Shown: positions 12,476-48,500, counted from the stretch's first letter. The stretch: DNA of 64,000 nt from Candidatus Latescibacterota bacterium (GCA_965204745.1 OZ242010.1:132007-196006); one strand, 5' to 3'. Numbers and translations are program-made. The notes: generated by a model from the letters alone, not told the origin.

Positions 12476-12864
12476 ATATTTCCCCCGTGACTTGGAAAAC
12501 GACTCTCGGTCGCGTGTCTCGTCAACGGCACGCAAAAAAATGCGGATGCGATGACGCAATCCGACTTCGGTCGTTGCCAAAATAAACGCCCCTCGGTCAT
12601 GGGGAAACCAAGGCGTGGTTGTGTGACAACATTGGGATAAGGGGAGTGTTGCTTTGGGGAGTGATTTGGAGGAAGGAATCGATCACGAGCCGCAGGGGAG
12701 CGGTGTTTTCGACCAAACCAAAATGCGTGGGGCAAGTATTGAGGAAATACTTGGGCGCACAAGATAGGGGATTAAACTTTGAAACGCAACAATAATTTTC
12801 CCATTTTTTGCAAAAAATTGTCTGCATGTCAAAAAAAAACAACAAAAAGCACGAGTGCAAACGC

Positions 12865-15759
12865 TCAAGACTGCCCGTAATCCTGAACGAAAATCAAAAA
12901 ATCGCCAAAACCAATCTGTCCATCACCATCCAAATCGTATCGCACATCGTAGTTTGCATGCCCGGCCGCGTACCCGTAATGCGATGCGAACAAGAGGAAA
13001 TCCTGAAACCCCACGCTGCCATTGCCATCAAAATCGGTCCGCAACCCGGCCTGGCGCGCAAAGGTTAAGACCAGCGGCTCGGCAAACACCTCGAATTGTC
13101 CCGCCCGCCGGATGCGCGCCTGTCGCAACCGGATTTGACCCGCATCGGAGGCGCGAAAGCGGATGGTGCCGAGCCGTGCGGAGGGCTGCGCGATTTTTCC
13201 GCCGAATGACGCGGCCATCACTTCAACCGCCGAAGCATCGTTGGCCGGGTGATAAGGCCCTGGCGAGTGTCCATTGGGAATCCCCTCTCCAATGTCAAAT
13301 CCCTCGTAAGCCAACGCGGGCGCGTCAAAATCGAACAAGGCGCGAAAGCCGATGGCGTCTTTGACCTGCTGCCCGTGAATTTGCACGGCGATCACGCCAT
13401 CGGCGGGCAGGACATGCACGCCGTTATTTTTTTCTCCCTCTGTTGCGAGCGACAGCGCGAACCGCGTGCTTTGCGGCCGGTACCCGGTTCCGGAAACGCG
13501 AATGCCGACCGAAGGCGTTTGCGGGTCATTGCTGGATAGGGTCGCGCTGCCTTGCAGGTCGCCCGGTCTGCTGGGTTCAAAACGCAGGGTAAAAAAGCCG
13601 TTTCGCTTGGCGGGAATCGTCAATTGTTTCGGGATGGCCCCCACTTGATCATCGCTGGTGATAATGTCGGTAATGGACAGGGCCGCGTCTCCAAAATTCG
13701 TGACCGTGACGATCATCGACTTTGACGTACCGATCTCAACGCGCCCAAAATCGCGTGGGGACGTATCGACCGAGAGTTGCGGTGCCGGAGCGACGGGTTG
13801 TTGAACGCCTCGTGCGCGCAACCGCACGGTGGCCCGATCCGGCAAATTGCTCAAAATGGTCATTGCGCCGGATTTATCGCCCAGGCTTTGCGGCGAAAAA
13901 GTGACGAAAATTTGCCCGCTGCGCCCCGGTGGCACCGTGAGGGACGATTGCGAGAGGCCATAGTCTCGAGAGGGCAACAGGATGGTCGTTATGACCAAGG
14001 ACGCCTGACCGGGATTGACAATCCCCAGTTCGAGGGTTTGGGATTGCCCCAACAAGACCGCGCCAAAATCGAGTTCCGTGCGCGAAAGGTTCATGATGGG
14101 CGTGCCGATCAAAAGTGGAGACAACTCCAATCGCCCGGCGCCATAGACATTATCGGGGCCAGGAGTGCCCATATCCACCACAGATCGCATCAGCGCGTCC
14201 TTCAACCTCCGCGCATTGTAATGCACGGGGTTGGAAGATTTTAGGAGGGCCGCGGCCCCAGCGACATGGGGCGTTGCCGCGGATGTGCCGTAATAGCCCG
14301 AAGGGCCGTAGCTTCGCGTGAGAACCCCCGCAGGCGCGACCAAGTCGGGTTTGATTCGCCCATCAAACGTCGGGCCTTGAGAACTATACGATTCAATCGG
14401 CCCCGTCGCATAGTTGCGATGCCCCAACGCGCCCACAGTCAGCGCGCCACGCGCATCCCCCGGCGAAGTCAATGACCCCGCAATGGATATAGGCCCGTCG
14501 AGATCATGGGATGGGCTGATCAATTTGAAAAGGGTCACTTTGGCGTCCCTTGCCCGCCAAACCGCCAAGCCGTAAGTTCCCGGTTCCCGAATGGTATAAA
14601 CGAGCCACTCTAAGGGCGGCGAGTAAGATTGTTTGGTATCTGCACGCTCGACAACATCAGCACTGCCATCCGTCGCGATTTTTACGAGCAACAGATCGTA
14701 GTCGTGAGACGTGCGCGGCCATTCATTCCAGGTCAAGACTGCTTTTACTTCGTCTCCTACTTGCACATTTTTGAGGTTGACGATTTCATCGCCTCCATCA
14801 AAGTTGTGATACCCGTTGGCATCCGGGTCGCTTAACTGTGCCGAGATTTTTCTTTGCGCCTCATTCCCCGCTGCGTTCACCCACAAAACATTGTTCTGAA
14901 ACGCATCATCGGCAATTTCACACGCAATACCCGTTCCATCGCCAAACCCTCTCGCAAAATCCCATCCCAACGATACGGTGACAATATCGAGCCCCTCCTG
15001 AATTGCCGCGTCCTTGGCGTTTTCCAAACTGACCATATCATCCACCTTGTACAGATGAATTTCGGCATCCGGGGCAATGTCGTGAACGATTTCAGCGCAG
15101 GCCGATCCATGCACCATGGCATCTTCGGAAAGACTGCCGCGTTCAAAAATCCCTTCGCCCGTAAAATCCCGAGAAAACACCGCGGGCAATTCTCCTCGGT
15201 TTTGCAAGGATGGCACGTTGACAAAACCGATGTCAATGACCCCGACTTTTATGCCGCGCCCGGTAAAACCACTGCGCGAATAAACCGGTGCTTTGATGCG
15301 CTCTACACCCTCGCTGACGAGGAGTGGGCGCGGCTTGATGGGCAGTCGCACAAACTGCACACCCGCCACATGGGTCAACTTTTCGAGTGCGGATATGGGC
15401 GCGGACACTTTGACCAAATGCCGAGATTGGGCGACAATGCTGACGCCCAAATTGGATAACGCGCCAAAATCAATCCTTTCTGAAAGTTGCCCATCTCGCG
15501 GCTCCAATACGACTGTGATATTTTCGCCATCGCTATCTGCCGCGCCGTATTGTTTTGCCGTCGCCTTGGCCAGTGCGCGTTTTTGTGCCACCCAGTTCTT
15601 TTGAATCCGCGCCAGCACCCCTTCCAACTTCGGGGGATGATCGACCTTTTCGTACTCAAGTTGAGTCGCCTGCACGGAAGCGGTTAAACTCAGCGCAACA
15701 GCGTGCAAAAACAGGACGAGCACAGAGAGAACCCCGCGCCGAGAGGAACGAACCATCAC
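12865..15759 (-). CDS. Secreted S8 subtilisin-like serine peptidase. It has tandem ASH/Ig-like domains, a cohesin-like beta-sandwich and a C-terminal type-I dockerin.
   Basis: Signal peptide MMVRSSRRGVLSVLVLFLHAVALSLTASVQA. The catalytic triad context is VGVIDIG (D), HGSACAEIV (H) and GTSAATPHVAGAAALL (S). The C-terminus DFDGNGSVGFQDFLLFASHYG...YDLDGDGQIGFGDFLIFVQDYG is a duplicated Ca-loop dockerin. Confidence 0.85.
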   Translation of the reverse strand: MMVRSSRRGVLSVLVLFLHAVALSLTASVQATQLEYEKVDHPPKLEGVLARIQKNWVAQKRALAKATAKQYGAADSDGENITVVLEPRDGQLSERIDFGALSNLGVSIVAQSRHLVKVSAPISALEKLTHVAGVQFVRLPIKPRPLLVSEGVERIKAPVYSRSGFTGRGIKVGVIDIGFVNVPSLQNRGELPAVFSRDFTGEGIFERGSLSEDAMVHGSACAEIVHDIAPDAEIHLYKVDDMVSLENAKDAAIQEGLDIVTVSLGWDFARGFGDGTGIACEIADDAFQNNVLWVNAAGNEAQRKISAQLSDPDANGYHNFDGGDEIVNLKNVQVGDEVKAVLTWNEWPRTSHDYDLLLVKIATDGSADVVERADTKQSYSPPLEWLVYTIREPGTYGLAVWRARDAKVTLFKLISPSHDLDGPISIAGSLTSPGDARGALTVGALGHRNYATGPIESYSSQGPTFDGRIKPDLVAPAGVLTRSYGPSGYYGTSAATPHVAGAAALLKSSNPVHYNARRLKDALMRSVVDMGTPGPDNVYGAGRLELSPLLIGTPIMNLSRTELDFGAVLLGQSQTLELGIVNPGQASLVITTILLPSRDYGLSQSSLTVPPGRSGQIFVTFSPQSLGDKSGAMTILSNLPDRATVRLRARGVQQPVAPAPQLSVDTSPRDFGRVEIGTSKSMIVTVTNFGDAALSITDIITSDDQVGAIPKQLTIPAKRNGFFTLRFEPSRPGDLQGSATLSSNDPQTPSVGIRVSGTGYRPQSTRFALSLATEGEKNNGVHVLPADGVIAVQIHGQQVKDAIGFRALFDFDAPALAYEGFDIGEGIPNGHSPGPYHPANDASAVEVMAASFGGKIAQPSARLGTIRFRASDAGQIRLRQARIRRAGQFEVFAEPLVLTFARQAGLRTDFDGNGSVGFQDFLLFASHYGYAAGHANYDVRYDLDGDGQIGFGDFLIFVQDYGQS

Positions 15760-16890
15760 TCACTGTCCTTTGCCAAAATTTTCCGAAAAAATGAGGAAAT
15801 CATCGCCATCCACATCGCCATCATCGTCCAAATCACCCCTTAAGGAGGTGGTCGAACCGGCGTTGGATTGGGCAGAGTTGCTCGACCAAGTCGTGATACC
15901 CTGCGGGGACAGCGTGCGGACAATGCCATTGCCATCTAACGTGGCTGTCATGTCGGCAAGCAACCTTTCCCGGTTGTCCTGGATGCCGATATAGCCATTT
16001 TCGTTCGCGCCAACGATCCAAGCACCGAGGGTGCCATAGCGATTGCTCACTCTGATCAATCCATTATCGTTTGTATTTGATCCTGCTGTAATGAGTTCTG
16101 TGCCCGTTTCGGACTTGAGTCTCAATACACCTCGCCCCTCGCCACTCCATCCCAAATAAGCAATTTGCTGGTCGTTGTTATTGTATAGATCCACATTGCC
16201 TGCGGTCTCATCTGCATACATGGACGCCAACCTTTTTCCCGATGCGTTCCTCAGACTCAACAGTCCATTGCCCCGAGTACTTGCCCCAAGATACGCCAAA
16301 TTTTCACTTTCATTGTTGATGTGTATCGCGGGGGTTTCATCCGCGCCCAGACTAATCAAATGCACGCCATTTTTGTTTTTTACGTTGATCAATCCATCGC
16401 CTGACTCAACATCTGATCCCAAAGCAATGAGATTATTTTCTTCTGTTGTATTGATCAACACATGTCCATTGCCATTTGAAGCACTCGATCCAATATAAAC
16501 CAGTTGCCTGCCTTCCGCAGAATTGACAAAAATAAGGCCCCCGCCCACGGTACTAGGCCACAATTCAACGACTGCTTGCCCGGTGCTGTTCACAATCTGC
16601 AATCCGCTCGTGCGAATCGGCCCCTGCGTTTGCGCCGTTGCTTTTCCCGATCTCTGTGCGGCTGGATGCCTTGTAGCGGGCCTGTCTTCGGTTGGCGCGT
16701 TGGGGATTTCAAAATCGGCTTTGGGCTTTGGAATAGGCGCGAGGAATGAGCCGATCCGCAATGGCGAAATGCCCTCTGTTGAGGCAACCGAGATCATTGC
16801 CAGCAACAGAAAACACAACAAGATGTTGAAATTGCGGTAGCGCGCAACGCGCGTTTCCAATTTGCCCAAACGCTCTTCAACTGAATTCAT
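15760..16890 (-). CDS. Membrane-anchored or secreted beta-repeat protein (~20-aa G-rich repeats, NHL/beta-propeller-like) ending in a single dockerin-like Ca-loop
   Basis: N-terminal hydrophobic segment ILLCFLLLAMISVAST. About 12 repeats of the type GNGxLxLxNxxGxxLxxLGADET. C-terminal DLDDDGDVDGDDFLIFSENFG. The start is at MNSVEERLG (16890). The stop abuts the subtilase start with no spacer. Confidence 0.6.
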   Translation of the reverse strand: MNSVEERLGKLETRVARYRNFNILLCFLLLAMISVASTEGISPLRIGSFLAPIPKPKADFEIPNAPTEDRPATRHPAAQRSGKATAQTQGPIRTSGLQIVNSTGQAVVELWPSTVGGGLIFVNSAEGRQLVYIGSSASNGNGHVLINTTEENNLIALGSDVESGDGLINVKNKNGVHLISLGADETPAIHINNESENLAYLGASTRGNGLLSLRNASGKRLASMYADETAGNVDLYNNNDQQIAYLGWSGEGRGVLRLKSETGTELITAGSNTNDNGLIRVSNRYGTLGAWIVGANENGYIGIQDNRERLLADMTATLDGNGIVRTLSPQGITTWSSNSAQSNAGSTTSLRGDLDDDGDVDGDDFLIFSENFGKGQ

Positions 16891-17001
16891 AATGCTTTCT
16901 CCTGTGTTGAGGTGGTGAACATCGAACAAACGCATAGCGGGTCGGTACTCGGGCGAGTACCGACCCGCTCTCATTGGGATTCCATACAGATCGGCTCTGG
17001 A

Positions 17002-30553: not shown

Positions 30554-33500
30554 CTAGGGGGGTAGGTCCCAATTCCCTATCGCAGTTGTTTCGCCTGTCG
30601 AGCCATAGATGGCGGCGAAGATGCGGAAATCGTCATAGTCAATTTGCCCATCGCCATTGAGATCGTACAGGGCGTCATATCGCTTTTGACCGAGCCGCGA
30701 TTCGTACTTGACCACAAAGTTCGAGAAGTCGGCGAAATTCACAACCCCATCGCCATTGAAGTCGGGCGAGGGGAGTGAGACCTCGAGCGTGAAGGGCAGC
30801 GAGGCCGTATCGCCATCGGCTTCCAACGCGCTCAAGGTGTAGGTCGCCTGGGCCTTAGCCTCGGTCGGCAGACCGGAAAGGGTGCGCGTGGTCGGGTCAA
30901 ACGATAGGCCCTCTGGGAGGAATGGCAAGAGGATATAGACCAACATCCCATCGTCATTGCTCGCTTGCGGGAGCGTTAGGGACGCGATCTCCTGATTGAC
31001 GAGATAGCTCTGTGGATCGATAGTCGTATCGCCAAAGGTCGGCATCCAATTCTGGACTTCAAGGGTGAACAGGAGATGCACTTCATCGCCATTGCCGTCT
31101 GTTGCGGTCAGCGTGTAGGTCGTCTCGTCCATGGCCTTGATCGGTGTGCCAGACGCGATGCGCGTCTCGGCGTCAAAGGTCAAGCCCTCGGGCAGATCGG
31201 GGAGTAGCGCGTAGGTCAGCGGTTTATCGCCACCGGTTGCCGGCGGTAGGGTCAAGGGATCGATCTTTTGATATTGCACATAGCCCTGTGCGGCGACGGT
31301 CGTCTCGCCGAAGGTCGGTATCGGATCGGTCATTACAGAGAGGATGAACATCAAGGTCGCCTCGTCGCCATTTCTGTCTGTTGCGGTCAGCGTATAGGTC
31401 GTGTCGGCTATCGCCTCGAGCGGCGTGCCAGACAGCACCCGCGTCTTTTTATCGAAACTCAAGCCCTCGGGCAGATCCGGGGTCAGCGCGTAGGTCAGTG
31501 GTTTATCGCCACCGGTCGCTTGTGGGAGCGTCAGGGACTCGATCTCTTGCTTTCGCATATAGGCTTGGGCGGCCACACTCGCATCGCCAAAAGAGGGTAT
31601 CGGGTTCGCGATGACGGTGAGGAAGAAACTCAGGCCGGCCTCATCGCCATCTTCTTCTGTGGCGGTTAGGGTGTAGATCGCTTTTTTTATTGCCTTAAGT
31701 GGTGTGCCAGACACAGTGAGCGTCTCCGCGTCAAAGGTCAAGCCCTCGGGCAGATCCGGCAGGCTGTACGTTAATGTTCTCATCGTCTCATCGCCATATA
31801 GCACCGCGGCGGGCAGGGTCAGCGGTTTAATGGCCCTGTGTTGATAGTAGCTTTGCGGATCAACGGCATCGGTGAAGGTCAGTTCCGTATCCGGTTCTGG
31901 TTCTGGCTCGGGTTCTGGCTCTGGCTCGGGTTCTGGTTCTGGCTCGGGTTCTGGAGTAGCGGGCCTCTCGGGGGGATCGTCTTCCTCAATGGTTAGGGTC
32001 ACGGGAGACGCTAGCGACGCCAGATTGCCACCCGTCACCGTTGCAGACACGGTCACGCGCTTGTCAGGCTCATTGAACGAGTTGTCCACGGCTGTGATCG
32101 TCACGGTGCCCGTGCTCGTCGTTTGCCCCGCCGCGACGGTCAGCGTGGTCGTGGTCGATAGCGTGAAGTCATCCACAGACGATTCAGCCTCAGTTGAGAC
32201 AGTGATCGTCGTCGCTTCGGTTGCGGGCCGATCTAGCGTCGCCGTTACTGTCGAAACTCCGCCATTCTCCGTAATCGCCACCGGAGACAAAACCAACGTC
32301 ACCTGCGGCACGTCGTCATCGGTAATCGTCAGCGTCGCAGAAGTGACCGATCCCGCGCCCTGGCTGTTGGATGGCGTGCCCGTCACGGTTACCGTCTTGC
32401 TCCCCGAAGCGATATTGTTGTTCACTGTCGTGATCGTCACGATGCCCGTGCTCGTCGTTTGCCCGGCCGCGACGGTCAGCGTGGTCGCCGTGCTCAGAGT
32501 GTAGTCGGATGATGTAGGCACGGAAACCGCGATCGTCGTCGCCTCGCTCGACGGGTGAGACAGCGTCGCTGTCACTGTCGAAACCCCGCCGTTCTCCGAA
32601 ATCGACGCAGGCGACACAACCATCGTCACGGCCGGCGCAACATCGTCGTCCGTCAGCGTCAAAGAGCCCCCGGTCACACTGCCCGCGCCTTGGTCGTTGC
32701 GCGCCACACCGGTCACGACCACGTTGCGTGGAGGCGCGTCTCGGTTGTTGTCCACGGACGTGATGATCACCGTGTCCGCAGTGTTCGCAGTTTGCCCGGC
32801 CGCGATGGCAATCGTCGAATCCGTCGCCCCCACCGTGTAAGCACCAGGCACCGAGCGCACCGTGATCGTCGTGATCGCGCTCGACTTGTGAGACAGCGTC
32901 GCCGTGATCGTCGAGACCGCGCCGTTCTCTGAAATCGACGAAGGATCCGGCGTCAACATCACCGTCGGTGGATCGTCGTCATCTGTGATCGTCAGGGGCT
33001 CGGAAGACGATAGCGACGCCAGATTGCCAGCCGCCACCGTTGCAGACACGGTCACGCGCTTGTTCGGCGCATCGGTCGTATCGTTCACCGCCGTGATCGT
33101 CACGGTACCGGTGCTCGTCGTCACACTCGCCGCGATAGTCAGCGTGGTCGTGGCCGATAACGTGAAGTCACCCGCAACCGCAGGCGACACAGCCAGTGCT
33201 GAAACCGTGATCGTCGTCGCCGCGGTCGCAGTGCGATCCAGCGTCGCTGTGATCGTGGAAACCCCGCCATTCTCCGAAATCGACGACGGAGACAAAACCA
33301 ACATCACCTGCGCCACGTCGTCATCGGTAATCGTCAGCGTCGCAGGAGTGACCGACGACCCTACGCCCACGCTGTTGGATGGCGTGCCCGTCACGGTCAC
33401 CGTCTTGCTCCCCGAAGCGATATTGTTGTTCACCGTCGTGATCGTCACGGTGCCCGTGCTCGTCGTTTGCCCGGCCGAGACGGTCAGCGTGGTCGCCGTG

Positions 33501-36500
33501 CTCAATGTGTAGTCGGATGACGTAGGCACGGAAACCGTAATCGTCGTCGCCGCGCTCGATGGGCGATTCAGCGTCGCCGTCACAGTTGAAACCTCAATGT
33601 TCTCCGAAATTGACGACGGAGACACTGCCATCGTCACGTCCGGCGCGGCCTCATCCTCTGTGATCGTCAAAGTCGCGGCGGTCACATTGCCCGCGCCTTG
33701 GGCGTTGCCCGCCACACCGGACACGGTCACACGCTTGTCACGCGCATGGGTCGTGTTGTTCACGGCCGTGATCGTCACACTGCCCGTGCTCGTCGTCTCG
33801 CCCGCCGCGACGGTCAGCGTCTTCGTGGTCGATAGCGTGAAATCGCCCGCAACCGCAGGCGACACAGCCTCTGCTGATACCGTGATCGTCGTCGCCGCGC
33901 TTGACTTGTGAGACAGCGTCGCCGTGATCGTGGAAACGCCGCTCGCCTCTGAAATCGACGCGGGCGACAGCGATAGTGCCACCGTCGGCGCGGCATCATC
34001 GTCGGTGATCGTCAGGGTCACATCAGACGGGGCAGACGCCAGATTGCCAGCCGCCACCGTTGCAGACACGGTCACGCGCTTATTCGGCGCATCGGTCGTA
34101 TCGTTCACCGAGGTGATCGTCACGGTGCCCGTGCTCGTCGTCACACTCGCCGCGATAGTCAGCGTGGTCGTGGCCGATAGCGTGAAATCGCCCGCAACCG
34201 CAGGCGACACAGCCTCCGCTGAAACCGTGATCGTCGTCGCCGTGGTCGCGGGGCGATTTAGCGTCGCCGTTACGGTCGAAACCTTAGCATTTTCAGAAAT
34301 CGACGCAGGAGACAAAACCAACGTCACCTGTGCCACGTCGTCATCGGTAATCGTCAGCGTCGCATCCGTGACCGATCCCGTGCCCACGCTGTTGGATGGC
34401 GTGCCCGTCACGGTCACCATCCTGTCCCCCGAAGCGTTGTTGTTGTCCACCGTCGTGATGACCACCATGTCCGACGCGTTCGCCGTTTGCCCGGCCGCGA
34501 TGACAATCGTCGAATCCGTCGCCCCCACCGTGTAAGCACCAGGCACCGAGCGCACGGTGATCGTCGTCGCCGCGCTCGATGGGCGATTCAGCGTCGCCGT
34601 CACGGTTGAAACCTCGCCAGTCTCCGCAATCGACGTCGGGGACACTGCTATCGTCACGGCCGGCGCGGCCTCATCCTCTGTGATCGTCAACGCCGTGCCG
34701 GTCACACTACTGCCCACGCCTTGGTCATTACGTGGCACAACGGACACGGTCACACTGTTGTCCGGCGCATGGGTCGTGTTGTCCACTGCTGTGATGAGCA
34801 CCGTATCAGACGTGTTCGCCGTTTGCCCGGCCGCGATGACAATCGTCGAATCCGTAGCACCCACCGTGTAAGTACCAGGCACCGAGCGCACGGTGATCGT
34901 CGTCGCTTCGCTCGACTTGTGAGACAAGGTCGCCGTGATCGTGGAAACGCCGCTCGCCTCTGAAATTGACGCGGGCGATAGCGACAGGGCCACCGTCGGC
35001 GCGTCATCATCGTCGGTGATCGTCAGGGTCACGTCAGACGGGGCCGACGCCAGATTGCCAACCGCCACCGTTGCAGACACGGTTACGCGCTTGTTCGGCG
35101 CATCGGTCGTATCGTTCACCGAGGTGATCGTCACGGTACCGGTGCTCGTCGTCACACTCGCCGCGATAGTCAGCGTGGTCGTGGCCGATAGCGTGAAGTC
35201 ACCCGCAACCGCAGGCGATACAGCCTCCGCTGAAACCGTGATCGTCGTCGCATCGGTCGCGGGGCGATCCAGCGTCGCTGTGATCGTGGAAACCCCGCCA
35301 TTCTCCGAAATCGACGTCGGAGACAAAACCAACGTCACCTGCGCCACGTCGTCATCGGTAATCGTCAGCGTCGCATCCGTGACCGATCCCGTGCCCACGC
35401 TGTTGGATGGCGTGCCCGTCACGCTCACCATCCTGTCCCCCGAAGCGTTGTTGTTGTCCACCGTCGTGATGATCACCGTGTCCGATGTGTTCGCCGTTTG
35501 CCCGGCCGCGATGACAATCGTCGAATCCGTAGCCCCCACCGTGTAAGCACCAGGCACCGAGCGCACGGTGATCGTCGTCGCCGCGCTCGATGGGCGATTC
35601 AGCGTCGCCGTCACGGTTGAAACCGCGACGTTCTCCGAAATTGACGACGGTGACACCGCCATCGTCACGTCCGGCGGGGCCTCATCCTCTGTGATCGTCA
35701 AAGTCGCGTCGGGCACATTGCCCACGCCTTGGGCATTGCCCGCCACACCGGATACGGTCACGCGCTTGTTCGGCGCATGGGTCGTGTTGTTCACCGCCGT
35801 GATCGTCACACTGCCCGTGCTCGTCGTCTCGCCTGCCGCGAAGGTCAGTGTCTTCGTGGTCGATAGCGTGAAATCGCCCGCAACCGCAGGCGATACAGCC
35901 TCCGCTGATACCGTGATCGTCGTCGCCGCGCTCGATTCGTGAGACAAGGTCGCCGTGATCGTGGAAATGCCGCTCGCCTCTGAAATCGACGCGGGCGACA
36001 GCGACAGCGCCACCGTCGGCGCGGCATCATCGTCTGTGATCATCAGGGTCACATCAGACGGGGCCGACGCCATATTGCCACCCGCCGCCGTTCCGGACAC
36101 GGTTACGCGCTTGTCCGGCGCATCGGTCGTATCATTCACCGATGTGATCGTCACGGTACCCGTGCTCGCCGTCGCATTCGCCGCAATCGTCAGCGTGGTC
36201 GCGGCCGATAGCGTGAAGTCACCCGCAACCGCAGGCGATACAGCCTCCGCTGAAACCGTGATCGTCGTCGCCGTGGTCGCGGGGCGATTTAGCGTCGCCG
36301 TTACGGTCGAAACCTCGGCATTTTCAGAAATCGACGTCGGAGACAAAACCAACGTCGCCTGTGCCACGTCGTCATCGGTAATCGTCAGCGTCGCATCAGT
36401 GACCGACGACCCTACGCCCACGCTGTTAGTTGGCGTGCCCGTCACGGTTACCGTCTTGTCCCCCGAAGCGATGTTGTTGTTCACCGTCGTGATCGTCACG

Positions 36501-39500
36501 CTGCCGGTGCTCGTCGTTTGCCCGGCCGCGACGGTCAGCGTCTTCGCCGTGCTCAGCATGTAATCGCCTACAACCGCAGGTGACACAGGCGTTACCGAAA
36601 CCGTGATCGTCGTCGCCGCGCTCGATGGGCGATTCAGCGTCGCCGTCACGGTTGAAACTGCGACGTTCTCCGAAATTGACGTAGGTGCCACCGCCATCGT
36701 TACGTCCGGCGCGGCCTCATCCTCTGAGATCGTCAAAGTCGCGTCGGGCACATTGCCCACGCCTTGGGCATTGCCCGCCGCACCGGATACGGTCACGCGC
36801 TTGTTCGGCGCATGGGTCGTGTTGTTCACCGCCGTGATCGTCACACTGCCCGTGCTCGTCGTCTCGCCTGCCGCGAAGGTCAGTGTCTTCGTGTTCGATA
36901 GCGTGAAATCGCCCGCAACCGCAGGCGATACAGCCTCCGCTGATACCGTGATCGTCGTCGCTTCGCTCGACTTGTGAGACAAGGTCGCCGTGATCGTGGA
37001 AATGCCGCTCGCCTCCGAAATCGACGCGGGCGACAGCGATAGTGCCACCGTCGGCGCGGCCTCATCGTCGGTGATCGTCAGCGTCACATCAGACGGGGCA
37101 GACGCCAGATTGCCAGCCGCCACCGTTCCGGACACGGTCACGCGCTTGTTGGGCGCATCGGTCGTATCATTCACCGATGTGATCGTCACGCTACCCGTGC
37201 TCGTCGTCACACTCGCCGCGATAGTCAGCGTGGTCGTGGCCGATAGCGTGAAGTCACCCGCAACCGCAGGCGATACAGCCTCCGCTGAAACCGTGATCGT
37301 CGTCGCCGTGGTCGCGGGGCGATTTAGCGTCGCCGTTACGGTCGAAACCTTGGCATTTTCAGAAATCGACGCAGGAGACAAAACCAACGTCACCTTTGCC
37401 ACGTCGTCATCGGTAATCGTCAGCGTCGCAGCCGTGACCGATCCCGTGCCCACGCTGTTGGATGGCGTGCCCGTCACGGTCGCCATCCTGTCCCCCGAAG
37501 CGATGTTGTTGTCCGCCGTCGTGATGACCACCGTGTCCGATGTGTTCGCCGTTTGCCCGGCCGCGATGACAATCGTCGAATCCATCCCCACCGTGTAAGC
37601 ACCGGTCACGGGCCGCACGGTGATCGTCGTCGCCGCGCTTGATGGGCGATTCAGCGTCGCTGTCACGGTTGAAACCGCGCCATTCTCAGAAATTGACGTA
37701 GGCACCACTGCCATCGTCACGTCCGGCGGGTCCTCATCCTCTGTGATCGTCAACGCCGTGCCGGTCACACTACTGCCCACGCCTTGGTCGTTGCTCACCT
37801 CAACGGGCACGGTCACACTGTTGTTCGGCGCATGGGTCGTGTTGTCCACTGCTGTGATGAGCACCGTGTCCGTCGCGTTCGCCGTTTGCCCGGCCGCGAT
37901 GACAATCGTCGAATCCGTCGCCCCCACCGTGTAAGCACCAGGCACCGAGCGCACGGTGATCGTCGTGATCTCGCTCGACTTGTGAGACAAGGTCGCCGTG
38001 ATCGTGGAAACGCCGCTCGCCTCTGAAATCGACGCGGGCGATAGCGTCAGTGCCACCGTCGGCGCGGCCTCATCGTCGGTGATCGTCAGCGTCACGTCAG
38101 ACGGGGCCGACGCCAGATTGCCAGCCGCCACCGTTCCGGACACGGTCACGCGCTTGTTCGGCGCATCGGTCGTATCATTCACCGATGTGATCGTCACGGT
38201 ACCGGTGCTCGCCGTCGCATTCGCCGCAATCGTCAGCGTCTTCGTGGTCGATAGCATGAAATCGCCCGCAACCGCAGGCGACACAGCCTCCGCTGAAACC
38301 GTGATCGTCGTCGCATCGGTCGCGGGGCGATTTAGTGTCGCCGTTACGGTCGAAACCTTGGCATTTTCAGAAATCGACGCCGGAGACAAAACCAACGTCA
38401 CCTGCGCCATGTCGTCATCGGTAATCGTCAGCGTCGCAGCCGTGACCGATCCCGTGCCCACGCTGTTGGATGGCGTGCCCGTCACGGTCACCATCCTGGC
38501 CCCCGAAGCGATGGCGTTGTCCACCGTCGTGATGAGCACCGTATCCGTCGCGTTCGCCGTTTGCCCGGCCGCGATGACAATCGTCGAATCCGTCGCACCC
38601 ACCGTGTAAGCACCAGGCACCGAGCGCACGGTGATCGTCGTCGCCGCGCTCGATGGGCGAGACAGCGTCGCCGTCACGGTTGAAACCGCGACGGTCTCCG
38701 AAATTGACGTAGGTGACACTGCTATCGTCACGTCCGGCGGGTCCTCATCTTCTGTGATCGTCAACGCCGTGCCGGTCACACTACTGCCCACGCCTTGGTC
38801 GTTACGTGGCACAACGGACACGGTCACACTGTTGTTAGGCGCATGAATCATGTTGTCCACTGCTGTGATGAGCACCGTGTCCGTCGCGTTCGCCGTTTGT
38901 CCGGCCGCGATGACAATCGTCGAATCCGTCGCCCCCACCGTGTAAGCCCCGGCCACCGGGCGCACGGTGATCGTCGTCGCTTCGCTCGATTCGTGAGACA
39001 GGGTCGCCGTGATCGTGGAAATGCCGCTCGCCTCCGAAATCGACGCGGGCGACAGCGACAGTGCCACCGTCGGCGCGGCATCATCGTCTGTAATCGTCAG
39101 GGTCACGTCAGACGGGGCAGACGCCATATTGCCACCCGTCGCCGTTCCGGACACGGTTACGCGCTTGTCCGGCGCATCGGTCGTATTGTTCACCGATGTG
39201 ATCGTCACGATGCCCGTGCTCGTCGTCTCACTCGCCGCAATCGTCAGCGTCTTCGCGGCCGATAGCGTGAAATCGCCCGCAACCGCAGGCGATACAGCCT
39301 CCGCTGATACCGTGATCGTCGTCGCCTCGGTCGCGGGGCGATTTAGTGTCGCCGTTACGGTCGAAACCTTGGCATTTTCAGAAATCGACGTCGGAGACAA
39401 AACCAACGTCACCTGTGCCACGTCGTCATCGGTAATCGTCAGCGTCGCAGCCGTGACCGACGACCCTACGCCCACGCTGTTAGCTGGCGTGCCCGTCACG

Positions 39501-42500
39501 GTTACCGTCTTGTCCCCCGAAGCGATGTTGTTGTTCACCGTCGTGATCGTCACGGTGCCGGTGCTCGTCGTCTCGCCCGCCGCTATCGTCAGCGTCTTCG
39601 CCGTGCTCAGCGTGTAATCGCCTACAACCGCAGGTAATACAGGCGTTACTGAAACCGTGATCGTCGTCGCCGCGCTTGATGGGCGATTCAGCGTCGCCGT
39701 CACGGTTGAAACTGCGACGTTCTCCGAAATCGACGTAGGCGCCACCGCCATCGTTACCTCCGGCGCGGCCTCATCCTCTGTGATCGTCAAAGTCGCGTCG
39801 GGCACATTGCCCACGCCTTGGGCATTGCCCGCCGCACCGGATACGGTCACGCGCTTGTTCGGCGCATGGGTCGTGTTGTTCACGGCCGTGATCGTCACAC
39901 TGCCCGTGCTCGTCGTCTCGCCTGCCGCGAAGGTCAGTGTCTTCATGGTCGATAGCGTGAAATCGCCCGCAACCGCAGGCGATACAGCCTCCGCTGATAC
40001 CGTGATCGTCGTCGCTTCGCTCGACTTGTGAGACAAGGTCGCCGTGATCGTGGAAACGCCGCTCGCCTCTGAAATTGACGCGGGCGACAGCGACAGCGCC
40101 ACCGTCGGCGCGGCCTCATCGTCGGTGATCGTCAGCGTCACATCAGACGGGGCAGACGCCAGATTGCCAGCCGCCACCGTTGCAGACACGGTCACGCGCT
40201 TGTCCGGCGCATCGGTCGTATCGTTCACCGATGTGATCGTCACGCTGCCCGTGCTCGCCGTCGCATTCGCCGCAATCGTCAGCGTGGTCGCGGCCGATAG
40301 CGTGAAATCACCCGCAACCGCAGGCGATACAGCCTCCGCTGAAACCGTGATCGTCGTCGCCGTGGTCGCGGGGCGATTTAGTGTCGCCGTTATGGTCGAA
40401 ACCTTGGCATTTTCAGAAATCGACGTCGGAGACAAAACCAACGTCACCTGCGCCATGTCGTCATCGGTAATCGTCAGCGTCGCAGCCGTGACCGATCCCG
40501 TGCCCACGCTGTTGGATGGCGTGCCCGTCACGGTCACCATCCTGGCCCCCGAAGCGATGTTGTTGTCCACCGTCGTGATGACCACCATGTCCGATGTGTT
40601 CGCCGTTTGCTCGGCTGCGATGACAATCGTCGAATCCGTCGCCCCCACCGTGTAAGCACCAGGCACCGAGCGCACGGTGATCGTCGTCGCCGCGCTCGAT
40701 GGGCGATTCAGCGTCGCCGTCACGGTTGAAACCGCGCCAGTCTCCGCAATCGACGTAGGTGACACCGCCATCGTCACGTCCGGCGGGTCCTCATCCTCTG
40801 TGATCGTCAACGCCGTGCCGGTCACACTACTGCCCACGCCTTGGTCGTTGCTCACCTCAACGGGCACGGTCACACTGTTGTTCGGCGCATGAATCATGTT
40901 GTCCACTGCTGTGATGAGCACCGTATCCGTCGCGTTCGCCGTTTGCCCGGCCGCGATGACAATCGTCGAATCCGTCGCACCCACCGTGTAAGCACCAGGC
41001 ACCGAGCGCACGGTGATCGTCGTCGCCGCGCTCGATTCGTGAGACAGGGTCGCCGTGATCGTGGAAACGCCGCTCGCCTCTGAAATTGACGCGGGCGACA
41101 GCGACAGTGCCACCGTCGGCGCGGCCTCATCGTCGGTGATCGTTAGGGTCACGGCAGACGGGGCAGACGCCATATTGCCACCCGTCGCTGTTCCAGACAC
41201 GGTTACGCGCTTGTCCGGTGCATCGGTCGTATCGTTCACCGATGTGATCGTCACGGTACCGGTGCTCGTCGTCACACTCGCCGCGATAGTCAGCGTGGTC
41301 GCGGTCGATAGCGTGAAATTGCCCGCAACCGCAGGCGATACAGCCTCCGCTGATACCGTGATCGTCGTCGCCTCGGTCGCGGGGCGATCTAGCGTCGCCG
41401 TTACGGTCGAAACCTCGGCATTTTCAGAAATCGACGCAGGAGACAAAATCAACATCACCTGCGCCACGTCGTCATCGGCAATCGTCAGCGTCGCAGGAGT
41501 GACCGACGACCCTACGCCCACGCTGTTAGTTGGCGTGCCCGTCACGGTTACCGTCTTGTCCCCCGAAGCGATGTTGTTGTTCACCGTCGTGATCGTCACG
41601 CTGCCCGTGCTCGTCGTCTCGCCCGCCGCGACGGTCAGCGTCTTGTCCGTGCTCAGCGTGTAATCGCCTACAACCGCAGGTAACACAGGCGTTACTGAAA
41701 CCGTGATCGTCGTCGCCGCGCTCGATGGGCGAGACAGCGTCGCCGTCACGGTCGAAACCGCGCCAGTCTCCGCAATTGACGTAGGCTCCACTGCTATCGT
41801 CACGTCCGGCGCGGCCTCATCCTCTGTGATCGTCAACGCCGTGCCGGTCACAATACTGCCCACGCCTTGGTCGTTATGTGGCACAACGGGCACGGTCACA
41901 CTGTTGTTCGGCGCATGGGTCGTGTTGTCCACCGCTGTGATGATCACCGTGTCCGTCGCGTTCGCCGTTTGCCCGGCCGCGATGACAATCGTCGAATCCG
42001 TCGCCCCCACCGTGTAAGCACCAGGCACCGAGCGCACGGTGATCGTCGTCGCTTCGCTCGACTTGTGAGACAAGGTCGCCGTGATCGTGGAAACGCCGCT
42101 CGCCTCTGAAATCGACGCGGGCGATAGGGTCAGTGCCACCGTCGGCGCGGCATCATCGTCGGTGATCGTCAGGGTCACATCATCCGGGGCCGACGCCAGA
42201 TTGCCAGCCGCCACCGTTCCGGACACGGTCACGCGCTTGTCCGGTGCATCGGTCGTATCGTTCACCGATGTGATCGTCACGGTGCCCGTGCTCGTCGTCA
42301 CACTCGCCGCGATAGTCAGCGTGGTCGTGGCCGATAGCGTGAAATCGCCCGCAACCGCAGGTGATACAGCCTCCGCTGAAACCGTGATCGTCGTCGCCGT
42401 GGTCGCGGGGCGATTTAGTGTCGCCGTTACGGTCGAAACCTTGGCATTTTCAGAAATCGACGTCGGAGACAAAATCAACGTCACCTGCGCCACGTCGTCA

Positions 42501-45500
42501 TCGGCTATCGTTAGCGTCGCAGCAGTGACCGATCCCGTGCCCACGCTGTTAGTTGGCGTGCCCGTCACGGTTACCGTCTTGTCCCCCGAAGCGACGCTGT
42601 TGTCCACCGTCGTGATTGTCACGGTGCCCGTGCTCGTCGTCTCGCCCGCCGCTATCGTCAGCGTCTTCGCCGTGCTCAGCGTGTAATCGCCTCCAACCGC
42701 AGGTGACACAGGCGTTACTGAAACCGTGATCGTCGTCGCCGCGCTCGATGGGCGAGACAGCGTCGCCGTCACGGTTGAAACCTCGCCAGTCTCCGCAATC
42801 GACGTCGGGGACACCGCTATCGTTACGGCCGACGCGGCCTCATCCTCTGTGATCGTCAACGCCGTGCCGGTCACACTACTGCCCACGCCTTGGTCGTTAC
42901 GTGGCACAACGGACACGGTCACACTGTTGTTAGGCGCATGAATCATGTTGTCCACTGCTGTGATGATCACTGTATCCGGCGCGTTCGCCGTTTGCCCGGC
43001 CGCGATGACAATCATCGAATCCGTCGCCCCCACCGTGTAAGCACCAGGCACCGAGCGCACGGTGATCGTCGTCGCTTCGCTCGACTTGTGAGATAGGGTC
43101 GCCGTGATCGTGGAAACGCCGCTCGCCTCTGAAATCGACGCGGGCGATAGCAACAGTGCCACCGTCGGCGCGGCCTCATCGTCGGTGATCGTCAGGGTCA
43201 CATCAGATGGGGCCGACGCCATATTGCCACCCGTCGCTGTTCCAGACACGGTCACTTCCTTGTCCGGTGCATCGGTCGTATCGTTCACCGAGGTGATCGT
43301 CACGGTACCCGTGCTCGTCGTCACACTTGCCGCGATAGTCAGCGTGGTCGTGGCCGATAGCGTGAAATCGCCCGCAACCGCAGGCGATACCGCCTCCGCT
43401 GATACCGTGATCGTCGTCGCCTCGGTCGCGGGGCGATTTAGTCTCGCCGTTACGGTCGAAACCTCGGCATTTTCAGAAATCGACGTCGGAGACAAAACCA
43501 ATGTCACCTGCGCCACGTCGTCATCGGCTATCGTTAGCGTAGCAGCCGTGACCGACGACCCTACGCCCACGCTGTTGGATGGCGTGCCCGTCACGGTTAC
43601 CGTCTTGTCCCCCGAAGCGACGCTGTTGTTCACTGTTGTGATCGTCACGGTGCCGGTGCTCGTCGTCTCGCCCGCCGCGACGGTCAGCGTCTTCGCCGTG
43701 CTCAGCGTGTAATCGCCTACAACCGCAGGTAATACAGGCGTTACTGAAACCGTGATCGTCGTCGCCGCGCTCGATGGGCGATTCAGCGTCGCCGTCACGG
43801 TTGAAACCGCGATGTTCTCCGAAATCGACGTAGGTGACACTGCTATCGTCACCTCCGGCGCGGCCTCATCCTCTGTGATCGTCAAAGTCGCGGCGGTCAC
43901 ACTGCCCACGCCTTGGGCGTTGCGTGGCACAACATTCACGGTCACATCGTTGTCCGGCGCATGGGTCGTGTTGTTCACCGCTGTGATGAGCACCGTATCA
44001 GACGTGTTCGCCGTTTGTCCGGCCGCGATGACAATCGTCGAATCTGTCCCCACCGTGTAAGCCCCGGCCACCGGGCGCACGGTGATCGTCGTCGCTTCGC
44101 TCGACTCGTGAGATAGGGTCGCCGTGATCGTGGAAACGCCGCTCGCCTCTGAAATCGACGCGGGCGATAGCGACAGTGCCACCGTCGGCGGATCGTCGTC
44201 GTCTGTAATCATCAGGGTCACGGCAGACGGGGCAGACGCCAGATTGCCAACCGCCACCGTTGCAGATACGGTCACGCGCTTGTCCGGCGCATCGGTCGTA
44301 TTGTTCACCGATGTGATCGTCACAAGACCCGTGCTCGCCGTCGCATTCGCCGCGACGGTCAGCGTCTTCGCGGTCGATAGCGTGAAATCGCCCGCAACCG
44401 CAGGTGATTCCGCCGTAGCTGAAACCGTGATCGTCGTCGCCTTGGTCGTGGGGCGATCCAGTGTCGCTGTGATCGTGGAAACCCCGCCATCCTCTGAAAT
44501 CGACGCAGGAGACAAAACCAACATCACCTGCGCCACATCGTCATCGGCTATCGTCAGCGTCGCAAGAGCGACCGTTCTCGTGCTCGCGCTGTTGTCCACC
44601 GCGCTGAACACGGTCACCCTCTTGTCCCCCGAAGCGGTGTTGTTGTCCACGGCCGTGATGACCACCGTGTCCGACGCGTTTGCCGTTTGCCCGGACGCGA
44701 TGATGATCGTCGAATCCATCCCCACCGTGTAAGCCTCGGCCACCGGGCGCACGGTGATCGTCGTCGTCGCGTCCAACGACTGTGTCAGCCTCGCCGTCAC
44801 GGTCGAAACGCCGCCGTTTTCCGAGATCGTCGAGGGCGTAAGTGTCAACATCACTATTTCTGGTTGCAGATCAAATTGCACAGTGGTGTCCATGCCGTCA
44901 TACTTCAAGACCGGATACTGATTCACCGTGCCAAAGTGCCACGGATCGTCGTCGCCGGGTTGTCCGTCGATGTCGATGTTCCAATTTTCGTAGATGCCGG
45001 TGTATCCTGTAACGGATACGAGTTCGGCGGTGGTCTTGCTGGTGACGCCGCTGGTGTCGGGGTCAGGGCTGTGGACGGCGCCGATGGCACGGCTCAGTCC
45101 GCTGGTTTCGGTGTCATAGTAGCTGTTGGATATGTCGTTGGTGTTTTGGTTTAAGCCTCCGATAAATCCGCCAGAGCCGTGCCATCGGCGCCAGTTACCG
45201 GCGCGGACGCGGTCAGTGGAGCTGACAGGGCCGATGGCGTAAGAGTTTATTATAACACTGTTAAAAATTCTGCCCACTAGACCGCCGACATACCTACTGC
45301 CGCTGACAGATGCCGTAGAGTAGCTCGTGGAGATCTTTCCGCGGATATCGGTCCGGCCTACTAATCCACCGATAGTGTAACCCCCACGGGGAGAGGGATC
45401 GGGCCACCGCCACTCAATGGGATTGAAACCGGCGACCCTGCCGGTGGTGTAGCAAGCGACAATGGTGCCGTGATTTTGTCCGGCCAGAATACCTACATGA

Positions 45501-48500
45501 GAAATTCCCGTGATATTGGCGTTGGTTATGCCCAGGGTTTCGACGCGGGAGAAGGCGCCAAGTTTGAAGAACAGGCCGAGGAAATTGGGGTTGGTGCCGC
45601 TACCGTAGATGGTGCGGTTGATGAACAGGTTGTTTATGGTGTGACCGTTGCCCTTGAAGTAGCCTGTGTAGCTGTTGCTGGTTCTGCAACAGGCGATGGG
45701 TAGCCAGCCGGAGCCGCCGTCCCAGTATTTGCCGCTGTGGTCGGTGGCATCTACATCGCCATCGCCATTGCTGTCGAAATCGAGGCTTGCGGTGAGTTCG
45801 TAGCCGACGCAGCGCCCGGACGGGCACCCCATGCGCTCCGCGGCAGCGGTGAAACGGTTGGGGAATGCAGCGTTGTAAGCGTTGTAGTTCATGGTATCAG
45901 CAGGGGCTACGAAACCATCGCCGTTGAGGTCATAGCGTATGGCGTTGAGTTGGTCGAGGTTGGCTACATCGATGTAACCGTCGTTATCCTCGTCGTAGTC
46001 GATCACATTCTCTGTGATCATCAGGGTCACGGTAGACCGGGCCACTGCTCCATTGCCACCCGCCACCGTTGCAGACACGGTCACGCGCTTGTCCGACGCC
46101 TGGATCATATTGTTCGCCGCTGTGATCGTCACAAGGCCCGTGCTCGTCGTCACACTCGCCGCGATAGTCAGCGTGGTCGCGGCCGATAGCGTGAAATCGC
46201 CCGAAACCGCAGGCGGTACCGCCGTAGCTGAAACCGTGATCGTCGTCGCCTCGGTCGCAGGGCGATCCAGCGTTGCCGTGATCGTGGAAACCCCGCCAGC
46301 CTCCGAAATCGACGACGGAGATAAAACCAACGTCGCATGCGGCCGGTCGTCATCGGTAATCGTCAGCGTCGCAGCCGTGACCGTTCCCGTGCCCGCGCTG
46401 TTGTCCACCGCGCTCAACACGGTCACCGTCTTGTCCCCCGCCGTTATGGCGTTGTCCACCGTCGTGATGACCACCGTGTCCGACGCGTTCGCCGTTTGCC
46501 CGGCCGCAATGATGATCGTCGAATCCATCCCCACCGCGTAAGCACCGGTCACGGGCCGCACGGTGATCGTCGTCACCGCGCTCGATGGGCGAGACAGGGT
46601 CGCCGTCACGGTCGAAACCTCGCCAGTCTCCGCAATCGACGTCGGGGACACCTCCATCGTCACGTCCGGCGGGTCCTCATCCTCTGTGAACGTCAACTCC
46701 GCGGTGACCACGTTTATGCCGTGCCAGTTAGTCACCTGAACCCACACGCCACGGCTGTTGTCCGGCGCATGAATCATGTTGTCCACTGCTGTGATGATCA
46801 CTGTATCCGTGGTCGCCGTTTGCCCGGCCGCGATGGTAATCGTCGAATTCGTCGCCCCAACCGTGTACACGCCAGGCACCGGGCGCACTGTGATCGACGT
46901 CGGCGCAACCGAACTACCCGATAGCGTCGCCGTGACCGTGGCAACACCGCCGTTCTCCGAAATCGACGACGGGTTCACCGCCATCGTCACTGTCGGCGTG
47001 GACTCATCGTCGGCAATCGTCAGGATCGCGTGCGACGTCGTTATATCGTTTGCCCCTGAAACCGTTGCCGCCACGGTCACGCGCTTCCACGGCGCATCGA
47101 TGGCGTTGTCCACCGCTGTGATCGTCACGGTGCCCGTGCTCGTCGTCGCATTTGCCGCTATCGTTAGCGTCTTCGCGGTCGAGAGCGTAAAATCGCCCGC
47201 AACCGCAGGTGCCACCGCTGTCGCCGAGACCGTGACCACCACTGCGGATGTCAGTGGTTTCGTCAATGCTGCCGTCACAGTCGTCTGATTGGCTGTACCA
47301 CTCTCGTCGATCTGTCGTGGCGTAAGTATCAATGTCACGAGTCGTGGTTGCAGATTAAATTGCAAGTCGGTGTCCATGTCGGCATACTTCAAGACCGGAT
47401 ACTGACTCGCCGTGCCAAAGTGCCACGGATCGTCGTTGCCCCCTTGCCCGTCGATGTCGATGTTCCAGTTTGAGTAGATGCCGGTGTAGCCGGTAATGGA
47501 TCGGAGTTCGTGGGTGGTCTTGCCGACGCCGAGCGCGCTGGTGCCTTTCCCACTGCTGTGCATGTCCCAATAGCTGAAGTTTGCGATGTTCGTAGTCGCT
47601 CGTACCCCGCCGCAGGCGAACGTTGCACCACTGTAAGTATAACAGGTGCTTTCGTCATTCGCATTCCCTACTAACCCGCCGGCCCAGCTGGCTTCGACGC
47701 TGGGGTACTCCTCTGCACCACCGACGCCGACGCCGACGGCGGGGAGGACCGCGCCCTGATCACGCTCACTTCTTATTATCCTGCCGAAAGCGTTGCCTCC
47801 GGTGACTATGCCGTTGGCGTAAGAGCTTGATATATGGGTGTTCTGCCACGCAGTGCCTACCAGACCACCGACGTCTCTGACTTCGCTGACATTTGCCATG
47901 GAGTAGCTCGCGTGGATAGTTCCCTGGAAGGAAAAACCGACTAATCCACCGATACTGTGGCTGTTGACCCCCCACGGGGTGAAGTGCGGGGTTGGGGTGC
48001 CTACTGGAGCGAAATCTTGGCCAGAGACCGTGCCGTGTGTGTAGCAGGCGACAATGGTACCTTTGAAAAGTATTCCGGCCAGAATACCTAGGTAAGAACC
48101 TCCTGTGACATTGGCGTTGATTATGCCCAGGGATTCGACGCGGGAGCCGATTCCAAGGCTATAGAACAACCCGAGTTTAGAGACAGAAAAGCCAACAGTG
48201 CTGGTTCTCTTTATGAACAGGTTTTTTATGGTGTGGCCGTTGCCCTTGAAGTAGCCTAAGTAGCCCGATTGGTGCCCTTGGTCCCCCCCGGGCACCCAGT
48301 AGCGGTAGTCGTACCTGTCTCCATAGAAGGCCCCAGAGGTTCCGGCGATTGGTCTCCAGCCGCGGCCGTTGTCCCAGTATTTGCCTCCGTGGTCGTCGGC
48401 ATCTACATCGCTATCGCCATCGCTGTCGAAGTTGAGGTCGTTCAGCAGTTCGTAGCCGACGCATCCAGAAGTGGGGCAGCCCATGGGTCCAACAGAAGAG

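Follow-up and report, generated by a model that had tools for sequence, protein, structure and literature searches.

A conserved two-gene cassette in a Candidatus Latescibacterota genome encodes a subtilase with a predicted cohesin and dockerin and a stalk protein ending in a single dockerin repeat

Cohesin-dockerin pairs are among the strongest protein-protein interactions and are common building blocks in synthetic biology. To our knowledge, the biology of these modules outside cellulosomes is almost unexplored. Here we describe two adjacent genes in a 64,000-nucleotide stretch of DNA from Candidatus Latescibacterota bacterium (GCA_965204745.1 OZ242010.1:132007-196006; the whole stretch is called the window, and positions are counted from its first nucleotide). 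One gene encodes an S8 subtilase that ends in a predicted cohesin followed by a dockerin, and the other encodes a stalk protein that ends in a single dockerin repeat, or half dockerin. Knowledge of non-cellulosomal cohesins and dockerins dates back to Peer et al. (2009), and such modules are discussed for anaerobic methanotrophic (ANME) archaea in PMC9012536. In Ruminococcus flavefaciens, group-2 dockerins have one Ca2+ loop, are functional, and are bound two per cohesin, and truncated halves of other dockerins can keep full affinity (PMC12270676). No paper in our literature search dealt with a fused cohesin-dockerin (Coh-Doc) tag, with subtilases of this lineage that carry a cohesin, or with half dockerins from organisms other than Ruminococcus, and none joined dockerins with Latescibacterota or, in a relevant way, with sponge symbionts; Youssef 2015 mentions neither cohesin nor dockerin.

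The two genes form a cassette on the minus strand. The gene for the stalk protein, a 376-amino acid (aa) protein with a predicted membrane anchor, spans 15760..16890 (-) and was delimited from its open reading frame (ORF) and its homologues. The gene for the 964-aa subtilase, delimited from its ORF and Pfam matches, spans 12865..15759 (-). The account that we consider best as a whole, and rather probable, is that the cassette is a conserved unit in which the stalk protein would tether the protease and the protease dockerin would plug into a non-cellulosomal network. We hold the domain assignments on which this account is built with high confidence. An earlier interpretation of the window, made from the sequence alone (the sequence-only reading), had proposed a cohesin-dockerin surface assembly locus here. 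Its sequence-level description was correct throughout, and parts of its wider interpretation are revised below.

The beta-rich module that follows the Ig-like domains of the subtilase is a divergent cohesin, as judged by its predicted fold and by transitive homology to Pfam Cohesin. The module comprises aa 763-903 (13051..13473, -), and the segment of about 140 aa that had been likened to a cohesin, VQIHGQQVKDAIGF..., begins within it at aa 792. We modeled the C-terminal 208 aa with AlphaFold2 (AF2), using an alignment of this segment with 12 homologues (A1) as input. The model had a mean predicted local distance difference test score (pLDDT) of 81.9 and consisted of nine strands followed by two helices. 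The cohesin part, nine strands over model residues 10-145, had pLDDT values mostly between 86 and 93. When this model was compared to the Protein Data Bank (PDB) with Foldseek, the 15 best matches were all cohesins, as were most of the first 34, with E values from 1.7e-7 to 3e-5 and target-normalised TM scores of 0.56-0.74 (0.66-0.74 for the top matches). The best matches included non-cellulosomal cohesins of C. perfringens (2vo8, E 1.7e-7; 2jh2) and A. fulgidus (2xdh). Cohesins, and not Ig domains, were the top structural matches.

Homology was traced with a cohesin-only profile (A3). An exhaustive search of 1.84 billion representatives with this profile recovered 589 proteins at E<=1e-3, 96 of them at E<=1e-30, with a lowest E value of 6.6e-256; a word-index search with the Coh-Doc module gave 16 matches. 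Relatives found in this way match Pfam Cohesin (PF00963) above its gathering score on the residues that A3 covers, as in P0137 (75.8 bits); in P0139 the Pfam match extends over aa 40-132 and the A3 match over aa 22-163. Pfam Cohesin was present in 26 of 80 scanned members (best E 8.6e-43) and was the most frequent family among those 80, so that cohesin-like candidate partners do exist.

The cohesin is followed, after a linker of about 7 residues, by a two-repeat dockerin (aa 905-963; 12871..13047, -), defined from the profile match to PDB and from the model helices. The repeats are DFDGNGSVGFQD-FLLFASHYG, with its loop starting at aa 909, and DLDGDGQIGFGD-FLIFVQDYG, with its loop starting at aa 942. 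Both have the loop-helix pattern and an Asp at loop position 12, and the AF2 model places helices at model residues 162-169 and 195-204. The duplicated-loop dockerin seen in the sequence-only reading is therefore borne out, with two Ca loops that are each followed by a predicted helix. When the family dockerin profile was compared to PDB, solved dockerins scored best (2y3n_B, E 9e-9; 4u3s_B, E 3e-8), whereas calmodulins reached only about 1e-4, three to four orders of magnitude worse. In the subtilase itself, Pfam Dockerin_1 (PF00404) scored 17.1 bits (E 0.0066), below its cutoff of 22.9, and EF-hand_1 scored 28.1, above its own cutoff. Among the family members scanned, 20 of 80 matched Dockerin_1 at E<=1e-3. 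A GC-type dockerin was considered and rejected (NCBIfam E 0.49).

The remainder of the protein is predicted to be a secreted, catalytically intact subtilase. A putative Sec-type signal peptide (aa 1-31, ending ...SVQA/TQ; 15667..15759, -) was recognised by eye. The S8 catalytic domain (aa about 166-545; 14125..15264, -) matched PF00082 with 98 bits (E 6.8e-28) and retains all of the catalytic residues: D176 (VGVID), H217 (HGS), N299 (AAGNE) and S493 (GTSAATPHVAG). An alignment with savinase places the Asp, Asn and Ser motifs, and the domain has an insert of roughly 125 aa. There are two Ig-like domains of the HYDIN/ASH/choice-of-anchor D type, at aa 554-649 (13813..14100, -) and aa 662-757 (13489..13776, -). 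Pfam detected Peptidase_S8 and two HYDIN/ASH/DUF1573 stretches and NCBIfam detected choice_anch_D, in agreement with the two ASH/Ig-like domains described before.

The upstream protein has 126 homologues of about 376 aa with 54-95% identity, and no Pfam or NCBIfam domain was found in it. Its start is the ATG at 16890, which is preceded by an AGGAGA Shine-Dalgarno sequence and agrees with the start of about 120 homologues. Based on the AF2 model of the whole protein (pLDDT 71) and on Foldseek, we view it as an anchor, a linker, a stalk and a flexible tip that carries one dockerin repeat. The N-terminal helix (aa 3-38; 16777..16884, -) contains a conserved charged segment, EERLxxLExRVxRYRNF, and a hydrophobic stretch that is a putative transmembrane (TM) helix or signal anchor; an alignment of 43 homologues (A2) shows almost no variation in its columns. 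A Pro-rich disordered linker follows (aa 39-96; 16603..16776, -), with pLDDT below 50 for aa 39-85. The stalk (aa 97-336; 15883..16602, -) consists of 22 beta strands in hairpin repeats and was modeled with pLDDT of 80-90. Its best Foldseek matches were engineered OspA single-layer beta sheets and Rhs repeat shells, which corresponds to an elongated beta meander.

The protein ends in the half dockerin GDLDDDGDVDGDDFLIFSENFGKGQ (aa 352-376; 15763..15837, -; Ca loop D353-D364), which was identified with the family dockerin hidden Markov model (HMM) and from A2. This matches the earlier description of a beta-repeat protein with a single terminal dockerin-like loop: the loop and its helix are homologous to a dockerin repeat, aligning to repeat 1 only of the family HMM (positions 2-26, E 7e-5), and a regular-expression search of the tail did not find a second Ca loop. 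The most invariant stretch of A2 is the C-terminal GD-x-D-x-DGD-x-DGDDFL-x-FSENFGK. That the most invariant segment sits on a disordered tail, beyond the confidently modeled stalk, suggests that the tail is the functional tip of the protein.

The gene pair recurs at other loci, which we refer to by L numbers. The genes are adjacent, 0-7 nt apart, in the window and in L001, L002, L009 and L012. For L004 and L005, adjacency follows from the coordinates of six-frame ORFs, and L003 has the S8 gene downstream of the upstream gene, with its frame broken. Flanking genes vary among loci, for example in L002, L009 and L012 compared to the window. The two-gene cassette is conserved in every full-length related locus examined, and its presence in L001-L005, L009 and L012 goes beyond a chance arrangement. 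The zero spacing reported for the window is real: the TGA of the upstream gene directly abuts the GTG ATG of the S8 gene, which starts either at the GTG at 15759 or at the ATG at 15756, leaving a gap of 0 or 3 nt. The two genes are probably translationally coupled. A promoter and terminator scan of 12500-17700 found 8 terminator-like sites compared to 7.2 expected.

Among the matches listed, full-length relatives of the upstream protein were found on chromosomes of metagenome-assembled genomes (MAGs) labelled Latescibacteria or Latescibacterota (OY282377.1, OZ220733.1), and one MAG with such a relative is labelled Gemmatimonadota (RHO2_bin_5); P0004 comes from a MAG of Candidatus Latescibacteria. 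Sulfatases are abundant in the neighborhoods of related loci. Sponge genome notes mention Latescibacteria, and a sponge-associated lifestyle is our inference.

Several other features were seen at these loci. In L005 (2021-6575), tandem paralogues of the stalk gene (ORFs of 426 and 82 aa), each with a terminal half dockerin, precede the copy adjacent to the S8 gene. In L013, the S8 cassette is immediately preceded by a Transposase_mut gene, and the gene before S8 encodes 215 aa, not about 376. A DUF6785/DUF6784 (PF20581/PF20580) gene follows S8 in L002 (14668-16575), L009 (9986-12001), L012 (6975-8882) and L013 (4802-6709), whereas the S8 gene of the window and that of L001 are followed by genes for sigma-70 and a glyoxalase.

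The Coh-Doc didomain of the subtilase belongs to a probably lineage-restricted family with diverse partners. Of 149 representatives, 117 have a dockerin directly after the cohesin, the linker being about 9 residues long at the median, and the first cohesin begins before residue 60 in 93 of the 149, so that the didomain usually lies just after the signal peptide. It is C-terminal in the S8 and WD40 proteins. The partner domains are LRR, WD40, cadherin, fn3, Big_9 and CARDB, which are repeats of adhesin-like or eukaryote-like type. The 25 families matched most often in the 80 Coh-Doc proteins scanned included neither glycoside hydrolases nor carbohydrate-binding modules, and neither turned up in the window genes that were scanned. 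There are also proteins with 2 to 7 tandem cohesins. P0137 (L008, 8001-11303), with a signal peptide, 7 tandem cohesins, 1 dockerin and a Gly-rich tail, is scaffoldin-like and is flanked by very large WD40 proteins and LRR proteins. Dockerin-only proteins include a giant ORF of the window (see below) and P0014, and cohesin-only proteins are found in the family as well. Because multi-cohesin, cohesin-only and dockerin-only proteins exist, the modules are expected to act in trans. A 1.59-Mb contig (ERZ21830300:ctg717363l) carries both an S8 cassette (L012) and P0140 (L011), which has a signal peptide, 3 cohesins, a dockerin, CARDB and LRR, and the L001 contig also bears a stand-alone Coh-Doc protein, P0012; cassette-bearing genomes therefore also have other cohesins. 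We consider it likely that these proteins form a non-cellulosomal network. The earlier suggestion of a non-cellulosomal docking system gains from these relatives, which carry the module on LRR, WD40, cadherin, fn3 and tandem-cohesin proteins.

The half dockerin and the cohesin of the subtilase both deviate from the rest of this family. Loop positions 9-11 were D-G-D in all 115 tails that could be parsed from 120 homologues. The canonical recognition positions of dockerins are 10 and 11 (PMC12270676), and in the dockerin repeats of the Coh-Doc family position 10 is hydrophobic in 190 of 199 repeats and Gly in only one. The dockerin of the S8 protein is family-typical at positions 9-11 (G-F-Q and G-F-G), which suggests, as far as sequence can tell, that it would be able to join generic cohesins. 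The net charge of S8-type cohesins lies between -2 and +2; in the family the median is -6, and no more than 6 of 175 modules reach 0 or a positive value. By these two measures, charge and positions 9-11, both the cohesin and the half dockerin encoded by the neighboring genes are atypical, and their sequences suggest that the two may have a dedicated specificity for each other.

Starting from the domain identities, the predicted folds, the conservation of the cassette, the architecture of the family and the distinct tail and cohesin subtypes, we propose a model in which the binding partners, dependence on Ca2+, stoichiometry and cellular location are predictions. The TM-anchored stalk protein would present the half dockerin at its tip, on the flexible tail. 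With Ca2+, the half dockerin would fold and bind the atypical cohesin of the subtilase, perhaps with one or two tails on each cohesin, following the example of R. flavefaciens group-2 dockerins, and this contact would tether the secreted subtilase to the cell envelope. The dockerin of the protease would be left free to plug into a family-typical cohesin, either of a scaffoldin-like protein or of another Coh-Doc tag, and the protease could thereby join a network with adhesin-like proteins such as the giant dockerin protein of the window. Such a system would be akin to the anchoring and adaptor parts of a cellulosome, with proteases and adhesion proteins as cargo and with reversed polarity, the dockerin being on the anchor and the cohesin on the enzyme. 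A specific tether of the protease by this candidate pair is plausible, if somewhat short of an even chance. We regard as doubtful the broader generalization that, in Latescibacterota that are probably sponge-associated, the Coh-Doc didomain is a universal self-assembly tag linking proteases, eukaryote-like proteins (LRR, WD40, cadherin and fn3) and poly-cohesin scaffolds into a network bound to the envelope, with the cassette as a private pair of reversed polarity.

Several observations weigh against this account, and some of them bear on the domain assignments. A direct match of the beta-rich module to Pfam Cohesin was not found at E<=10 with the isolated 143-aa segment or at E<=1 with the whole protein. 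The A3 profile matched the solved cohesins 5nrm and 4uyp weakly (E 0.4-0.6), in an alignment that is in register, with F-x-V-x-YD-x-x-x-L-x-Y over alfeyDatslayegfd. The lack of a direct Pfam Cohesin match, together with a dockerin that falls below the Dockerin_1 cutoff and passes that of EF-hand_1, would fit a reading in which the module is a third Ig/ASH spacer and the C-terminus a generic EF-hand pair, and the locus has no cohesin-dockerin system. We consider that very improbable given the cohesins at the top of the Foldseek matches, the strong Pfam Cohesin scores of close homologues, the gap between dockerins and calmodulins in the profile comparison, and the existence of tandem multi-cohesin architectures. 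An Ig/ASH identity of the module is largely refuted by the first two of these. A classical polysaccharide-degrading cellulosome was also considered. Latescibacteria are reported to have cellulosome-affiliated enzymes (Farag 2017, as cited in PMC7081726), which also speaks against taking the organism as non-cellulolytic, as the sequence-only reading did, and the scaffoldin-like multi-cohesin proteins would suit such a complex. The enzyme of the cassette is a protease, and the cargo of the family (S8, LRR, WD40, cadherin, fn3, Big_9) did not include glycoside hydrolases or carbohydrate-binding modules in the scan described above. We therefore rejected this candidate, which seems extremely improbable.

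The pairing of the two cassette proteins needs more caution. Didomain linkers are short, both in the subtilase and across the family, and with only about 7 residues between them the subtilase dockerin could occupy the adjoining S8 cohesin in cis. In Archaeoglobus fulgidus, a cohesin and a dockerin of one polypeptide reportedly bind each other. The didomain could thus be self-contained, with the dockerin seated on its own cohesin in cis or by a head-to-tail swap as a Ca2+-stabilised structural or polymerising tag, and the half dockerin would then not be bound to the S8 cohesin. We think this unlikely, since the family members with several cohesins and one dockerin, or with only one type of module, require binding in trans, and since it leaves unexplained both the invariant tail of the adjacent gene and the fact that the S8 cohesin and this tail are both atypical. 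The upstream protein could also be tied to the protease in some other way, as a membrane-bound inhibitor, maturation factor, regulator or substrate, with its motif serving as an EF-hand-like Ca2+ cap. Its lack of a Pfam or NCBIfam domain would allow this, as would the tail, which is modeled as disordered (aa 339-376, AF2 pLDDT below 50), has a motif that also fits generic EF-hand loops, and reaches an E value of only 7e-5 with the dockerin HMM at the scale of the window. The tail sequence DxDxDGxhxxxDFLxFxxxFG is nonetheless the repeat type of the S8 and family dockerins, with Asp and not Glu at loop position 12. This motif lies on a flexible tail that tops a stalk, its gene is the neighbor of one that carries a cohesin, and functional single-repeat dockerins are documented (PMC12270676). 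We consider a link of that other kind quite improbable. For the proposed tether itself, the charge argument is weak, because most of the acidic residues of the tail are Ca ligands, and any description of the system as lineage-wide rests on few named MAGs. The location is a further concern. RND (resistance-nodulation-division) efflux genes in relatives suggest a diderm envelope, and an N-terminal TM anchor in a probable diderm would place the complex at the inner membrane or in the periplasm. The surface location assumed in the sequence-only reading is for this reason not upheld.

We used a six-frame HMM scan of the whole window to place the cassette in its surroundings. This search for cohesins and dockerins, which had been suggested earlier, found exactly one cohesin-type module, that of the subtilase, and three dockerin-type sites: the dockerin of the subtilase, the C-terminus of the ORF at 30554..51370, and the half site that ends the upstream protein. 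The earlier count of three dockerins in 40 kb therefore stands. The idea of a dedicated 40-kb locus that includes the giant protein does not, since only the two-gene cassette is conserved and other genes intervene. The giant dockerin ORF is 13.6 kb from the cassette, and between them are genes for a coiled-coil protein, an ABC transporter, a DDE transposase, a YWTD propeller protein, a MoxR ATPase and an NFACT protein. Three such sites in 40 kb probably reflect a high density of these proteins in the lineage and not a dedicated island.

The giant ORF (30554..51370, -) encodes a 6938-aa repeat protein. Its C-terminal two-loop dockerin (30596..30769, -) scored 22.5 bits with Pfam Dockerin_1, compared to a cutoff of 22.9, and had an E value of 9e-16 with the family dockerin HMM. 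The protein is a possible client of the same network, outside the conserved cassette. It contains about 32 copies of a 345-bp (115-aa) unit at 33045-43891 and, near the C-terminus, four He_PIG Ig domains and a (PE)n linker before the dockerin; no Pfam match was found in its N-terminal 1000 aa. Other genes lie nearer to the cassette. Directly upstream of it in the window, and not so in L001 or L002, is a gene for a 207-aa protein (17002-17625, -) with short coiled-coil repeats (KRFEDLKESMNNRFDDMNNRFNDLKRDVDKRFDDLKRDMD...), a C-terminal hydrophobic helix and only sub-threshold Pfam matches to coiled-coil families. Between this gene and the cassette there is a perfect 16+16-nt palindrome, GAGCGGGTCGGTACTCG-CC-CGAGTACCGACCCGCT, at 16936-16970 (- strand); it sits inside a spurious 5' extension of a 404-aa ORF and may be a terminator or an element like a repetitive extragenic palindrome (REP). 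The DDE transposase (DDE_Tnp_1_3; 20082-20975, +) lies between the cassette and the giant gene. The YWTD protein (988 aa; 20955-23921, -) has 10 LDL-receptor class B (YWTD) repeats that form a eukaryote-like propeller. The scan did not find a dockerin in it; the relative P0014 has an N-terminal dockerin followed by YWTD repeats.

These results add a cohesin subfamily, present in the S8 protein, that is missed by standard domain models, and a fused Coh-Doc tag that recurs on proteases and on eukaryote-like repeat proteins of the kind believed to mediate contact between symbiont and host. The compact conserved cassette offers a testable candidate pair, a half dockerin and an atypical cohesin, of possibly new specificity. 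If the two bind, functional single-repeat dockerins would extend to another phylum, and the tail would be a 25-residue orthogonal docking peptide. It would then be the first functional half dockerin outside Ruminococcus, in a docking system that may serve host interaction or protein processing and not polysaccharide breakdown.

The locus shares features with each of the described systems and differs from each. Like the non-cellulosomal modules known before (Peer et al. 2009, through PMC9012536; 2vo8, 2jh2, 2w1n and 2xdh), the modules described here are on proteins that are not glycoside hydrolases, and sometimes both are on one polypeptide. Unlike them, the S8 cohesin is too divergent for Pfam and belongs to a recurrent didomain tag with a linker of about 7-9 residues. 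The family described here also includes tandem-cohesin proteins, whereas Peer et al. found none in archaea according to PMC9012536. In ANME archaea, PMC9012536 likewise describes a large non-cellulolytic repertoire, with scaffoldin-like proteins of up to 5 cohesins and a dockerin and proposed extracellular or cell-cell assemblies; the system described here is bacterial, and it is marked by the fusion of cohesin and dockerin into a didomain and by a conserved cassette in which a protease has a half-dockerin protein as its putative partner. The cellulosome adaptor and anchoring scaffoldins (ScaB/ScaE of R. flavefaciens, ScaA/ScaB of A. cellulolyticus) also combine cohesin and dockerin on one polypeptide, which permits hierarchical assembly, and use an envelope-bound holder. 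Here the cargo is a subtilase and adhesin-like repeat proteins, the putative anchor is a TM helix and not an S-layer homology (SLH) or sortase anchor, and the predicted polarity of anchor and enzyme is reversed. The half dockerin itself is closest to the R. flavefaciens group-2 dockerins (CohScaE-RfDoc2; J Biol Chem 2025, PMC12270676), which are likewise natural, C-terminal, and made of one Ca2+ loop and one helix. Those dockerins have Gly-Arg at positions 10/11 (PMC12270676), whereas the tail described here has D-G-D at positions 9-11, is carried on a TM-anchored stalk in another phylum with no orthology that we would expect to be detectable, and is predicted to bind the cohesin encoded by the next gene.

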